DNA of 61,580 nt, filler included, from Stramenopiles sp. TOSAG23-3 (Eukaryota), in NCBI GenBank assembly GCA_900128585.1. It is 19 parts of 19 records of this genome, joined end to end, with 100 filler letters (N's around TTAATTAATTAA, not from the genome) between each part and the next. Parts side by side here need not be neighbours in the genome. Positions count along the whole stretch, not along the records: positions 3,266 to 6,429 come from LT644383.1; 18 more parts are not named here. The stretch is one strand, 5' to 3'. This document shows, one piece after another, positions 3,266 through 8,492 of this stretch. How positions within the stretch are numbered: position 1 is the stretch's first letter; each line of letters opens with the position of its first letter. The notes beneath the pieces are model-generated. The model was not told where the DNA came from. It searched no databases and saw only the letters and a program-made list of their open reading frames with translations. A program made the translations under genes and the position numbers.

Positions 3266-3750
3266 CCAACAAGGATTAGCAAGATCACATCCCAGAACGT
3301 TCTCTGTTTTGCGTTGCAGCTCAACAAATACCAGGGCTTTTTTTGCAGTTCTGCCCCATCAACAGTAATGCTTTTCGTATTAGAACCCTTTGCATTTATC
3401 GCCGCATTAGTCGCGAGAATATAGTTTGAAATTTCTTTCAACGACCGGCGGCGGTGTGTGCGCAACGATGAGCTATACGCTCTTAGCTCCGCATCAACTG
3501 TTGTTCGCCGCTTTGGTGTTTGGAAAGATGGCCGGTCTACGGATGTGCTATCATACGAAAAATAATTCCTCGCTCTCTGCTGTTCAGAAATAGACAGACT
3601 CCTTTCCCTTCCAGAGAGATTAGTGAAGATTGGTATCGTTGGGGCAGAAGAGCCGCTTAAAGTTGCTTCACTTTCCGGGTCCGGGCAAGACTTGCCATTG
3701 CCTATTGTTGGCAAAACGACCGTGGACTCATATCCGGTTATACTCGACAT
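3266..3750 (-). CDS. N-terminus of a probable cyclic-nucleotide-gated/EAG-like cation channel (3' truncated)
   Basis: Low-complexity N-terminus, then PWYLL...RTFWDVILLILV, typical of the pre-S1/S1 segment. Runs into the contig end. Confidence 0.55.
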
Positions 3751-4365
3751 TGTGATGAGCGCGATGATAACAACATTTTCAGAGATGGTTCAGTTTAATA
3801 CCAAATGTTTCACGGCTTGAATGATGAATTTGAACTTGGTGGCAGTAGCCTCCTTCGTTTCTTTTTATTCTGTTAATCTTTCTCTGCTAGCTGTTGGTCG
3901 ATAGTAGATAGGTCGATAGTAGGATAACAATATCAGAGGAGGGATGTTAGGTCATAATAGCAGAAGGATGTATACTGATGTACTTGATACCCAGGACTCG
4001 CGCAATTTTTTGTGACTTGTTGTGACTTCTCCTCTAAAAAATGAAATATTATTATATATAAGAACACAATATATTATATAATATTAATATATTGTACTTT
4101 GTGTTTGGTAACAACAACTACTATTACGTTATAGTGTTTATTGGCCCCCATGCGGGTACAGCATCATGAGTACGTACTACTACTTTTTAATAAACAGAAC
4201 TAACAGCAGCAGGGTCTTTCTCCGGGGGTCGTTGTCTCTAATTCCTATTTGAAATTGCTTCTACTCCTTTCCATATTTTCAATACCATTCGAATTTGAGT
4301 TTCCGAGTTGTGCGAAAAATTTCTCTCACTTCAACATCTGCCATCTATTTCCTAAAACAACAAAC

Positions 4366-5205
4366 ATGTTGAACATATTCTCGAAAGGAAAAAAAACAAA
4401 GAAAACGACTGAAGCGATCTTTTCTTTATTGTATACCCCGTCTCTACATGTGGAAGAGCTAGCAACAGTCACTGTGGCGACGTCGGAAAGGTTTCTAGTG
4501 CAGCACCATGCAAAAGTTAGAGCTTCGAAACAATTAAAATCCCTAAATATTTTAAGTGATGATCAAAGGAACAGGGGTTTGCCAGGGCAAACATCTAAAT
4601 ATGTTGTTGATCCTGAGTGGGCTAACGAAACCGCAACTAGCATTCGAGTTGCCCTGGAGGATCTTGCTAAGTTCTACAAAAAACACAACGTTAACACTGT
4701 TTTTGTTTTTGAAGCCAATGATTTAGCCGTGTTACAAGCAAACATAAAGGAGCATGCAACATTAGCTTTTCCCGATATTGAATTCTTGTCTTCCGAAATA
4801 ATTTTGGGGGGACCGGAAATAGTTCGAGGAAACACGTTACAAGAGTTGTACGATGCACGATTCCCTCATCACGCGTTTCAAATACGGTCACCACTGGAAG
4901 AGTGCATTGCTCAAGACAAAATTGCCCGCAGCATATATGTTGGCGGTCGTGTTATGATCCAAGTCGGCTGCCCAATGCCGACAGTTGAGCAATTGACTCA
5001 AGAGGAGTTTAAAATTTGCGATCTGGATGGAAACGGGGAGATCTCAAAAGAAGAGTTCCGGGACTGGTATTCCAGTCAGTGGGAAAAAAAATTTGTGTCT
5101 GCTGATACAAATGGGGATGGATCGATCAGCTACGAAGAATTTAAGAACTGGTACGTCCCACATGAAATCAAAATGAAAACCGATTACAAAATGGGAAAAC
5201 CATAA
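4366..5205 (+). CDS. Degenerate DEDDh-exonuclease-like domain plus two EF-hands (paralogue A)
   Basis: First ATG at 4366. EF loops DLDGNGEISKEE and DTNGDGSISYEE. N-terminal domain aligns by eye with the 5457-6239 product. Confidence 0.75.
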   Translation: MLNIFSKGKKTKKTTEAIFSLLYTPSLHVEELATVTVATSERFLVQHHAKVRASKQLKSLNILSDDQRNRGLPGQTSKYVVDPEWANETATSIRVALEDLAKFYKKHNVNTVFVFEANDLAVLQANIKEHATLAFPDIEFLSSEIILGGPEIVRGNTLQELYDARFPHHAFQIRSPLEECIAQDKIARSIYVGGRVMIQVGCPMPTVEQLTQEEFKICDLDGNGEISKEEFRDWYSSQWEKKFVSADTNGDGSISYEEFKNWYVPHEIKMKTDYKMGKP

Positions 5206-5456
5206 TTTCATGACCGCTGCACAAAATAAAGTGCAGTAGAAAAGCGAACAATAATTACTTTATTTGCGATAGGAGCGTACGAAATGTGTTAAATGTAATT
5301 AAATTTTACAATCAAGAATTCTTAATTATACTCTCGGAAATATATAAATTTAAAAACAAATTATTTGATTTTATTTCGATATGTTAGTCTAATACCAAGG
5401 GGATTCAATACGTTTTTTCCCCCGTTTTTTCTCATTTAATTTATATCATCGATACT

Positions 5457-6239
5457 TTATTTTCTATATTCCCGTGAACTGTACCACGTTTTGAATTCCT
5501 CAAAGGAAATAGTATCGTCTTTGTTAGCGTCGGCCAACTTGAACTCGCCTTCCCATGTCTTGCGGTACCACTTTTCAAATTCTTCTTTTGAAATTTCCCC
5601 ATTATCATCTGCATCGCATTCTTTAAAGGCTTTGGAAATGGGATCCAATTCTATCTGGCATTTTCCCTCTTCGCCGAGCATGGATATATACCCGTTTTCA
5701 AGATATGTTTCGATAAGCTCTGCTTGCGCGATTACGCCGCCATTCAAAGAGTGTGTATTGATATTTTTGGCTGGAAACTGGTGTTTATACAATCCAGTCA
5801 AATTGCGCTTACCGTGGTTTTCTGGTCGCCGCAAAAACGGCAATGTCTCAATTCGTACAAATGGAGGTGGACTCAGACCAAGCTTGGCACACTCCGCGTC
5901 GAGCAGTTCATACTCGGAATCATGGTATGTAAGTAGGCATTTGACCTTGTTTCCTTTCCAGAATGCAAACAAATTTTTCAGAGCCGATATGGCCGACACA
6001 CGGTCACTTTCAAACCAGCCTATCTGTTCGCACAATATCTTTGCTCCAAGAGTTTCGTAAGGGGAATCATTTGCATCCGCATTTGAAAACAAAGATTCGT
6101 TCTCAATAAATGCTTGGTATTGGATGTAGGTGGCCCCGACAAGGCAGCTCGCAATACCCACGATGTGACGGCTGAATGGATCGGCTCTTAGTTTCGGCAC
6201 TGCCTTTATCTCGAGTACTGCGTATATTTTACTTTCCAT
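5457..6239 (-). CDS. Degenerate DEDDh-exonuclease-like domain plus two EF-hands (paralogue B)
   Basis: YAVLEIKA, LLTYH..EYELLDAEC, IETLPFLR and THS...GV follow DnaQ Exo I-III spacing with acidic residues altered. EF loops DADDNGEISKEE and DANKDDTISFEE. Confidence 0.8.
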   Translation of the reverse strand: MESKIYAVLEIKAVPKLRADPFSRHIVGIASCLVGATYIQYQAFIENESLFSNADANDSPYETLGAKILCEQIGWFESDRVSAISALKNLFAFWKGNKVKCLLTYHDSEYELLDAECAKLGLSPPPFVRIETLPFLRRPENHGKRNLTGLYKHQFPAKNINTHSLNGGVIAQAELIETYLENGYISMLGEEGKCQIELDPISKAFKECDADDNGEISKEEFEKWYRKTWEGEFKLADANKDDTISFEEFKTWYSSREYRK

Positions 6240-6529
6240 TGGTAATTTGCTTATATTGATATTTCTGTTTGGGTTGCTGAATATTTTTAAATATTGGCGT
6301 TGAACCCTTCGCGTTCGTTACATTGTGCGAAACCAGTGGCACTGGCATTATTAATATACCGATAGACTTTGTGAAGTACCGGGAGGAATGGTGTTATACA
6401 TCAATTATTATACTACAGCACCCAAGAAGNNNNNNNNNNNNNNNNNNNNNNNNNNNNNNNNNNNNNNNNNNNNTTAATTAATTAANNNNNNNNNNNNNNN
6501 NNNNNNNNNNNNNNNNNNNNNNNNNNNNN

Positions 6530-6602: not shown

Positions 6603-7067
6603 TTATTATAATAATGAAAGAAGAGGATTTTTTTTGTACTTGCTTCTTTATTATTGTTTCGTTACTCTAGTGGGATAGCAGGCGAATAATTTTACTATAG
6701 AGAAGCCCTATTATTAGAACGACTACCAGATAATACTATTAACAGTACACTGATAATAAAAAGCACGCTAATAATGAAGAAGAACAAAAAAGAAGATGAT
6801 TGATTGAACATACAAATAGAAGGGAAGAACAACAAAACACAGATCAATCGATGATAGAAGAAGAAGAGGAGAAGATGCGGAAGAAGAAGAAGCACTATGT
6901 AACTTCTGCTCTTTTTTCTTTACTAGATGGAATACGTTCGTATGACAAAATAGAATCATTGATTTTCCGATTGTCCACCAATGAAATGGGTGAATCAAGA
7001 GGGAGAGAGAGAGAGTTGTTGGTGTTTATTGTGCGAAAGTTACGATAAATACACAAGAGTTTCAGTG

Positions 7068-8492
7068 ATGGCGGACCCAGGGGAGGGCAGCGACGGTCGT
7101 GGCGGCGGCGAGCAAAACCGGAGGACCATGTCCAATATTAAAAAGCGCATTCGTGTCGCCGGGGACCGGAGGGCGTTTCGTAGGACACGGTCTACGATCG
7201 ATAACTTGCGGTTTGTATTCGACCAAGTCGACGTGGACGGGGATGGGGTAATCAAGCGAGCGAAGTTTGAGGACTTGCTGGTCCACTTTGGGATATCGAA
7301 AAACAGCATAGAAGCGCACGAGCGTTTGCAAAACTCTGGGTACGGGGACCAAGACAATATTACTTTCAGCGAATTTACGTCGGTCGTGGAAGAGTGGGGA
7401 ACGAGGGGCAAGGGCATCAACGTAGATGTAGAGGCGGAGCGATGGGCGAACGACCCGATGTTAATCGATGAGACAGGAACTATTTTTGACCCGAAGAACG
7501 AGGAGGAGGAGACGCAGAAGAGTATGACGGATCGGTACTCGGTCATTCCGTTGTGGATGGTTCACGACGAGCGGTTCAAAAAGCTAGTGGCCGGGGGCAT
7601 TGCTGGAATTTTTGCAAAGACGTTCGTCGCCCCCGCAGATCGTGTGAAGATTTTGTTCCAAGTCCATTCGTCGAAGAAATTTACGATTCTCAACGCCGTG
7701 CGGGAATCGGTTAGTATTGTCAATAAGGAGGGGGTCCCGGCCCTATGGCGCGGCAATTGGGCCACCGTCCTGCGCGTGTTTCCATACGCGGGGATACAAT
7801 TTTTAACGTTTGACATGTATTCTGCCTACCTGAAGGGCACGCGGCCTGCAAAGGCAGACGAGAGATACGTTCCCGAATTCTGGCGTCTCCAGGGGGAAAG
7901 GCTGTTGTCCGGCGCCATGGCCGGTGCAACCTCTGTAGCGGTGACCTACCCGTTAGATTTAGTGCGCGCACGGATGGCCGTCCAACAGCTTGACCCGACG
8001 GCGGCTGGAAACATTGGGGTGGTGAACACCTTTCGTTCGATCGTCCGTGAGGAGGGTTACTACGGCCTGTTTCGAGGCATGAAGCCGACCCTTATCGGCA
8101 TCTTGCCCTACGCCGGATTTGCGTTCCTTGGGTTTCACTGGATGAAAAGCTCAGTGGAAAGGATTAAGCAGCGGGAAATTCTGTGGTGGGAGCGCCTCCT
8201 TTGCGGGTCCTTGGCGGGGTTGACCGCCCAATCGATGTCCTACCCGCTCGACATGGTCCGTCGTAGAATGCAGACGGAGCGTGTGGTGTTTGCCGACACA
8301 CGGGAGGTTTCTCGTTATGAGTCGATTAACGGGACGCTGTCGATGATCAGAAAATCAGAGGGCTTTCGGGGCCTGTTCAAAGGCCTGACGATGAATTGGT
8401 TGAAAGGCCCCCTGGCGGTTGGAATCAGCTTTGCCGCGAACGATTACATTCGGAGAGAAATGGGCGTGCTGGAGAAGAGGGAAGTCCCCTGA
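7068..8492 (+). CDS. Mitochondrial carrier (CoA-carrier SLC25A42/SLC25A16-like) with N-terminal EF-hands
   Basis: Three carrier signatures (PADRVK, PLDLVR, PLDMVR). AKTFVAP and LWRGNxATVLRVFPYAGIQF resemble the CoA-carrier clade. EF loop DVDGDGVI. Likely ATG at 7068. Confidence 0.85.
   Translation: MADPGEGSDGRGGGEQNRRTMSNIKKRIRVAGDRRAFRRTRSTIDNLRFVFDQVDVDGDGVIKRAKFEDLLVHFGISKNSIEAHERLQNSGYGDQDNITFSEFTSVVEEWGTRGKGINVDVEAERWANDPMLIDETGTIFDPKNEEEETQKSMTDRYSVIPLWMVHDERFKKLVAGGIAGIFAKTFVAPADRVKILFQVHSSKKFTILNAVRESVSIVNKEGVPALWRGNWATVLRVFPYAGIQFLTFDMYSAYLKGTRPAKADERYVPEFWRLQGERLLSGAMAGATSVAVTYPLDLVRARMAVQQLDPTAAGNIGVVNTFRSIVREEGYYGLFRGMKPTLIGILPYAGFAFLGFHWMKSSVERIKQREILWWERLLCGSLAGLTAQSMSYPLDMVRRRMQTERVVFADTREVSRYESINGTLSMIRKSEGFRGLFKGLTMNWLKGPLAVGISFAANDYIRREMGVLEKREVP

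Follow-up and report, generated by a model that had tools for sequence, protein, structure and literature searches.

A convergent pair of paralogous stramenopile genes predicted to join a degenerate DEDDh exonuclease-like domain to an EF-hand pair

Two convergent genes, A and B, occur in a 61,580-nt stretch of DNA from Stramenopiles sp. TOSAG23-3, referred to here as the window. Each encodes a protein that ends in a pair of EF-hands, raising the question of what the domain preceding these hands is and what such a combination might do. Both genes lie on a single 3,164-bp contig (C4915; window 3266-6429) of a 28.4 Mb genome in 7,088 contigs, in which no 18S match turned up. Their open reading frames are intact and without introns, and the two convergent genes 251 nt apart that had been described in the original prediction are confirmed in their coordinates (Table 1). 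Our preferred reading, which we hold tentatively and at rather less than even probability, is that A and B form a Ca2+-gated pseudo-exonuclease pair that would bind nucleic acid and leave it uncut, most likely with A and B in one complex. In that reading it is the binding and the gating that we infer.

A and B are paralogous along both domains. The two proteins are 32% identical over 189 residues (E 4e-24). Kinship outside the EF-hands had been set beforehand as a test, and it holds: the N-terminal parts alone are 24% identical over 116 residues by BLASTP (E 1e-4), and profile-profile comparison gives a probability of 95% (E 2.7e-8 over 114 columns), matched by none of 94 block shuffles. The blocks quoted earlier as shared by the two N-terminal domains were all found, and all align. 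The EF modules had been called near-identical, which is too strong; they agree at 31 of 53 residues (58%), and of their third codon positions 18 of 52 match. These values point to a duplication of some age and show no trace of recent gene conversion. Conversion of one EF module by the other was considered and ruled out, since the orthologues of each type described below are closer in this region (62% and 78%) than the paralogues (49-58%). The duplication is earlier than the split of the organisms sampled. No further A/B paralogue was found in the genome, in searches that give lower bounds.

It is highly probable that the N-terminal domain has a DEDDh fold, an assignment that stands firmly for B and extends to A through paralogy. 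We compared a profile of four N-terminal domains (A, B and one orthologue of each) with a reference DEDDh profile of 41 sequences, taken from loci of the same genome, phages and bacteria; the closest solved relatives in its seed alignment are the PolC exonuclease (2p1j) and Pol III epsilon (2gui, 1j53). Using hhalign the local alignment covers 148 colinear columns (E 2.5e-4) and the global one 176 columns (E 3.7e-5), with a probability of 43-44%. The score of 31.1 compares with a maximum of 23.0 in 161 shuffles (81 block, 80 column) and 12.1 for the reversed profile. The B-types alone give E 4e-4. When the family profile was run against 565 open reading frames of the reference loci, three DEDDh representatives came out on top (9.2, 6.8 and 4.4 bits), and the best of 426 non-DEDDh frames scored 1.5 bits. 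In the ESM Atlas, on a scale that is uncalibrated for protein parts, the rank-1 cluster for B is RNase_T (0.94, with 183 of 256 features shared), and an RNase_T cluster is rank 2 for A (0.93, 163 features). The NCBIfam model NF005907 (DEDD exonuclease domain protein) weakly matches residues 83-138 of the B orthologue (E 0.076-0.14). The match falls over the Exo II region, where the B orthologue has an intact H-x-x-x-F-D.

A number of results weigh against a DEDDh fold. The A-types alone align to the DEDDh profile with E 0.084, which is not significant, and the rank-1 ESM Atlas cluster for A has no family, with shared features of 146-163, below 170. Scored one at a time on the DEDDh hidden Markov model, the sequences reach no more than -0.8 to 2.2 bits, and between 1 and 37 of 200 shuffles of each do as well. 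The N-terminal domains have no nuclease match in Pfam, PHROGs or PDB sequences, and no library family model reaches its cut-off on them; PHROGs returned one unnamed family, for one of the four members. A tblastn search of phages with these domains gave no matches, and none of 38 candidate viral contigs was confirmed. AlphaFold2 models, built from alignments of eight to nine sequences, have mean predicted local distance difference test (pLDDT) values of 47 and 44, with blocks of about 21-65 over the N-terminal domains, and three fold searches matched the EF-hands alone. The domain could therefore be some other alpha/beta fold, its likeness to DEDDh a chance pattern of helices and strands; the hhalign probability, the lack of a library match above cut-off and the poor models would all suit this. 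We nevertheless think it improbable. The full-length colinear alignment beats all 161 shuffles, including the 81 block shuffles that preserve local pattern, the ESM Atlas and NCBIfam independently indicate the same family, and the Exo II motif of the B orthologue is intact. The DEDDh fold of the original prediction thus stands as an ancestry and a motif register in B drawn from sequence (profile, ESM Atlas and NCBIfam), while the AlphaFold models are too poor to speak to the fold itself. The genome also encodes an intact DEDDh protein (contig C175; L003:1423-2118, minus strand; PF00929 E 1.9e-13). It has 98 phage matches, with 24-32% identity among the 40 listed, and is a candidate for the kind of gene from which the pair came.

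The catalytic positions of the reference DEDDh set are strongly conserved (D in 39, E in 38, D in 41, H in 37 and D in 41 of the 41 sequences). In the aligned register B has E10, K12, E111, H163 at the histidine site and G168, and its orthologue has E, R, D, N and S. The corresponding residues are S20, L22, A121, R174 (histidine site) and E179 in A, and S, K, A, L and D in its orthologue. Neither type carries the full D-E-D-D set. On this alignment, which is weak and could be shifted locally, B has lost two and A three of the four acids, and each orthologue keeps the same pattern: the B-types retain the first and third acids and the A-types only the fourth. The losses are uniform within each type and complementary between A and B. 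The histidine general base of Exo III is H in one of the four sequences (P0002), and N, R or L in the rest. The motif register proposed earlier for B is supported by the profile alignment, except that IETL, named as a motif, falls outside the four catalytic positions. The accompanying statement that most catalytic carboxylates are lost is right for A and not for B, where E10 and E111 remain; that the Exo III acid is lost in B and retained in A had been overlooked. DEDD catalysis requires four acids binding two metals, according to the part of PMC13659232 that treats the mechanism, and PXL, which retains a single DEDD residue out of four, is described there as inactive and nucleic acid-binding. 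Because of this, given the DEDDh fold, A and B very probably have no canonical exonuclease activity. The isoelectric points of the N-terminal domains are 6.0 and 6.5 for the B-types and 7.9 and 9.1 for the A-types; A is basic and B is not, so A would fit as a binding face. Just ahead of the L-x-x-L-Y helix an invariant basic residue is found in each type (R145 in B, R154 in A). By analogy with TREX1, the loop before this helix may have a role in substrate binding.

The C-terminal 60 or so residues form an EF-hand pair and are confidently modelled (AlphaFold2 pLDDT 75-86 for residues 211-260 of A, which matches Pfam EF-hand_1 with E 7.6e-13). All eight loops of the four proteins (P0001, P0005, P0002 and P0015) have the canonical 12 residues, with acidic or Asn ligands at positions 1, 3 and 5 and Glu at position 12; in the B-types loop 2 has D or E in place of Gly at position 6. 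From these canonical loops we would expect with good confidence that the hands bind Ca2+. The two loops are separated by 16 residues in all four proteins, compared with 24 in another EF pair of the window. The spacing is given as 12-13 in lanmodulin and typically about 25 in the relevant section of PMC10232371, so the loops lie closer together than in sensor modules such as a calmodulin lobe or the regulatory domain of the ATP-Mg/Pi carrier (4zcu). Lanmodulin has four hands with Pro at loop position 2. A and B have two hands and no Pro at that position, and their EF pair is therefore not a lanmodulin; the NCBIfam LanM model scores 21.9 bits against a cut-off of 135. EF-hands are abundant in this genome. 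PF13499 (EF-hand_7) gave 796 candidates, of which all 150 that were scored exceeded the cut-off, many in open reading frames of 500-2,200 residues. With at least 150 such matches, EF-hand fusions are common there.

Could A and B associate? We modelled B(1-258) with A(12-268) in ESMFold2 without alignments, obtaining a median score of 0.51 compared with 0.06 for the best control. The contacts agree between runs to at least 93%, the partner pLDDT is at least 62, and B folds as a compact protein with pLDDT 72-78. Other features of the test count against a complex. Only 5 of 78 solved complexes have scores of 0.60 or below, but all four mismatched pairs that pass do. Seven of 44 blind gene neighbours pass, the calibration contains no paralogues, and solved dimers of DEDD or EF-hand proteins may lie behind the A-B pass. 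The heterodimer of the original prediction gains weak support from this score, and we regard it as possible, at somewhat below even chances.

Relatives of the pair are few. Word-indexed searches returned the alleles P0003 and P0004 and one A orthologue, P0005, 66% identical. A HMMER search with residues 1-191 of B against 1.84 billion representatives gave three matches: an allele, the B orthologue P0008 (40% identical), and the repeat protein P0009, discarded as spurious. P0006 and P0007, multi-EF-hand proteins matching 18-23% of the query only, were also set aside. The A-types escaped the same HMMER search, so it may have overlooked relatives at a greater distance. The B orthologue cluster P0008/P0015 is 45% identical to B, and the P0008 cluster has six members. 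Over the N-terminal domain orthologues are 40% (B) and 63% (A) identical. Apart from A and B themselves only one A-type and one B-type were found, together with a further B relative in run X1 that shows 29 differences across 197 nt. The two-domain build is shared by all full-length members. No longer or fused form was seen among 8,000 scored candidates, which is weak evidence, and no metagenome locus matched the EF pattern. It had been suggested that the architecture and convergent synteny be sought in metagenome-assembled genomes of protists; a metagenome scan for B-types yielded one of 400 candidates, on a 1,161-bp contig (L007), and a second gene beside a B-type at no locus. In L007:1081-1161 this B orthologue stops at the start of the EF module and AT-rich sequence follows, with no GT at the break. 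Because full-length members exist, the break is likely an artefact of the contig end.

A and B are two real genes covered by RNA contigs. Part of the stretch occurs in 20 of 24 listed runs, from 14 studies, and those of the 20 that carry a label come from marine or seawater metagenomes, or from one organism given as a code. Coverage was mapped with contigs, not reads, of four runs (three RNA, one DNA), from which strand and expression level are not readable. One RNA contig (run X1 record 2) spans gene A at 4363-5252 and another (run X2 record 18) spans gene B at 5424-6267, both without a joint. A contig of the DNA run (X3 record 23; 5154-5475) bridges the spacer and links both 3' ends. The interval 3800-4329 has no coverage in any of the three RNA runs and is largely covered by the DNA run. 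No antisense overlap of the A and B transcripts was seen, A contigs ending by 5252 and B contigs starting from 5387, although contigs cannot prove its absence. At window 4388, in an A-run close to where gene A starts, an RNA contig of low depth (X2) carries one A too many. This is most likely an error, because P0004 and P0005 keep the frame.

We compared A and B with known systems. Like the DEDDh 3'-5' exonucleases (PF00929; DnaQ/Pol III epsilon, PolC exonuclease, TREX1 and RNase T), they have Exo I, II and III in order and similarly spaced, but they differ in having one (A) or two (B) of the four acids, a histidine that is not conserved and a C-terminal EF-hand pair. Exuperantia (Exu) is presented as a DEDD pseudo-nuclease in the pertinent part of PMC5785220, and passages of that paper and of PMC13659232 list it among dimerizing RNA-binding proteins. 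Exu and PML-1 PXL (EXO-SAM), as far as those passages describe them, resemble A and B in having a DEDD-like domain without the catalytic set, PXL with one of four acids, as in A. These are animal proteins, likened to A and B by description, and a SAM-like helical domain follows their EXO domain where A and B have the EF-hand pair. A and B would work most like the EXO-SAM pseudo-exonucleases, yet are not members, the EF pair replacing SAM. MAEL (Maelstrom) likewise has a domain derived from DnaQ-H that has lost the DEDD residues, an RNA-binding module in the accounts given in parts of PMC4408791 and PMC2628886. Its ECHC/EHHCHC zinc residues are absent from A and B, which have no match to the Pfam Maelstrom model; the four N-terminal domains have 20 invariant columns, none of them a Cys or His, and thus no ECHC zinc site. 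We found no description of a DEDDh or pseudo-exonuclease domain fused to an EF-hand in a literature search that covered few subscription papers. PMC7050145 was rejected as a precedent, since in the passages concerned it names DEDDh and EF-hand in unrelated contexts, and what we drew on from PMC3359990 (RIF4/RIF5) has no bearing on A and B. On balance A and B look like a lineage-restricted, Exuperantia/PXL-like pseudo-exonuclease with an EF-hand pair, which may bind nucleic acid under calcium gating.

Such a pair might have arisen as follows. In a marine protist lineage rich in EF-hands, an ancestral DEDDh exonuclease like DnaQ or PolC/epsilon would have acquired an EF-hand pair at its C terminus. 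The fused gene would then have duplicated into an inverted pair, and A and B would each have lost part of the two-metal site to become pseudo-exonucleases. They could now hold a nucleic acid end or structure uncut, probably as an A-B dimer, with Ca2+ on the EF-hands turning the binding or the dimer on or off. By analogy with the animal proteins, nucleic acid binding is only slightly less probable than its absence, and Ca2+ may be coupled to that binding. An obligate Ca2+-switched heterodimer with complementary catalytic losses and a short-linker EF pair, which would catch or let go of RNA (or DNA) ends in answer to Ca2+ as a direct Ca2+-to-nucleic-acid switch on a DEDD scaffold, is a more specific and unlikely version. 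Three further observations tell against the pseudo-exonuclease reading: the B-type domains are not basic, the SAM-like part that aids RNA binding in Exu and PXL is absent, and the B variants show modest constraint at best. In one contig, with all 14 differences counted, 6 codons are synonymous and 8 non-synonymous; in a second, with 14 of its 29 differences shown, the numbers are 4 and 7.

The dead nuclease fold might instead be a protein scaffold, in which case A and B would serve as Ca2+ sensors or adaptors with protein partners, each other or further ones, for instance in the flagellum or at a membrane, and would not bind nucleic acid. The neutral to acidic B domains, the mostly structural nature of the residues invariant across both types, the short basic and hydrophobic tail that opens the A-types and the joining of EF-hands to many kinds of protein in this genome (of 796 EF-hand_7 candidates, at least 150 match) would all be consistent with this. 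Yet the characterized DEDD pseudo-nucleases, PXL, metazoan MAEL and Exu, all bind nucleic acid according to the portions of the papers that we cite, and basic residues close to the loop presumed to meet the substrate do not vary; we judge a pure scaffold rather unlikely, if quite conceivable. B could also be an active, non-canonical nuclease that Ca2+ switches on, with A as the basic substrate-binding face of a heterodimer. B has acids left at Exo I and at Exo II together with an invariant H106, K12 or R occupies the position of the second acid in both B-types, what A and B have lost is complementary, and the dimer has some weak support. RNase T dimers bind substrate across subunits, a point for which our literature search found no paper. 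Against an active B, however, both B-types have G or S in place of the Exo III Asp, and in the orthologue Asn replaces the Exo III His. Moreover the DEDD mechanism, as set out in the section of PMC13659232 noted above, implies that the four acids form one site within one domain, so the Exo III acid of A cannot simply complete the site of B, and we consider this proposal improbable. Finally, the two genes may be fast-drifting, weakly constrained duplicates with no specific joint function, their adjacency a trace of the old duplication. The very narrow distribution, the divergence of the orthologous N-terminal domains, the many non-synonymous variants and the failure of the metagenome scans to show A-B adjacency in other species would agree with drift. 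But both frames are intact and covered by RNA, and in other organisms both types persist at the same length and with the same architecture, every EF loop retained, making this the least probable of the alternatives and a very unlikely one.

If the pseudo-exonuclease reading is right, this protist pair with its own EF-hands would have arisen independently and would link Ca2+ directly to nucleic acid handling. In the parts of the literature cited, the RNA-binding modules Exu, PXL and metazoan MAEL all come from animals, and a built-in second-messenger sensor is described for none of them. The pair would also provide a small, easily expressed model for complementary loss of catalysis in duplicated enzymes. 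Its impact has limits, as the pair is very narrowly distributed and EF-hand fusions abound in the genome. A further limit is the host, as we know of no cultured organism that carries A and B.

Table 1. Features of the A and B genes, in window coordinates.
Feature	Position	Strand	Description
Gene A	4366-5205	+	279 residues, no introns; a short basic N-tail, then a DEDDh-like domain and an EF-hand pair
A degenerate DEDDh-like domain	4408-4959	+	about residues 15-198
A EF-hand pair	4984-5160	+	loops: residues 219-230 (5020-5055) and 247-258 (5104-5139)
Spacer	5206-5456		251 nt, AT-rich, between the stop codons of A and B
B EF-hand pair	5469-5645	-	loops: residues 209-220 (5615-5580) and 237-248 (5531-5496)
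B DEDDh-like domain	5682-6230	-	about residues 4-186
Gene B	5457-6239	-	260 residues, intronless: DEDDh-like domain and EF-hand pair

The A-types begin with a short tail that is hydrophobic and then basic (window 4366-4407, plus strand), a feature that the B-types do not have; it is possibly a membrane or organelle targeting signal. The window consists of separate pieces of about 3.2 kb joined by runs of N, so only a partial gene at 3266-3750 (minus strand) is a proven neighbour of A and B. Its 5' part alone is present, cut by the contig end, and it is directed away from gene A and covered by RNA contigs. A Pfam scan of its 161 residues gave no match; the end resembles the start of an ion-channel membrane domain. 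Other nearby pieces carry eukaryotic genes (MutL-like, a Ca2+-type mitochondrial carrier and Ssu72). The carrier gene, on the next piece at 6981-8492 (plus strand), joins EF-hands to a mitochondrial carrier and is of the ordinary Ca2+-regulated type.
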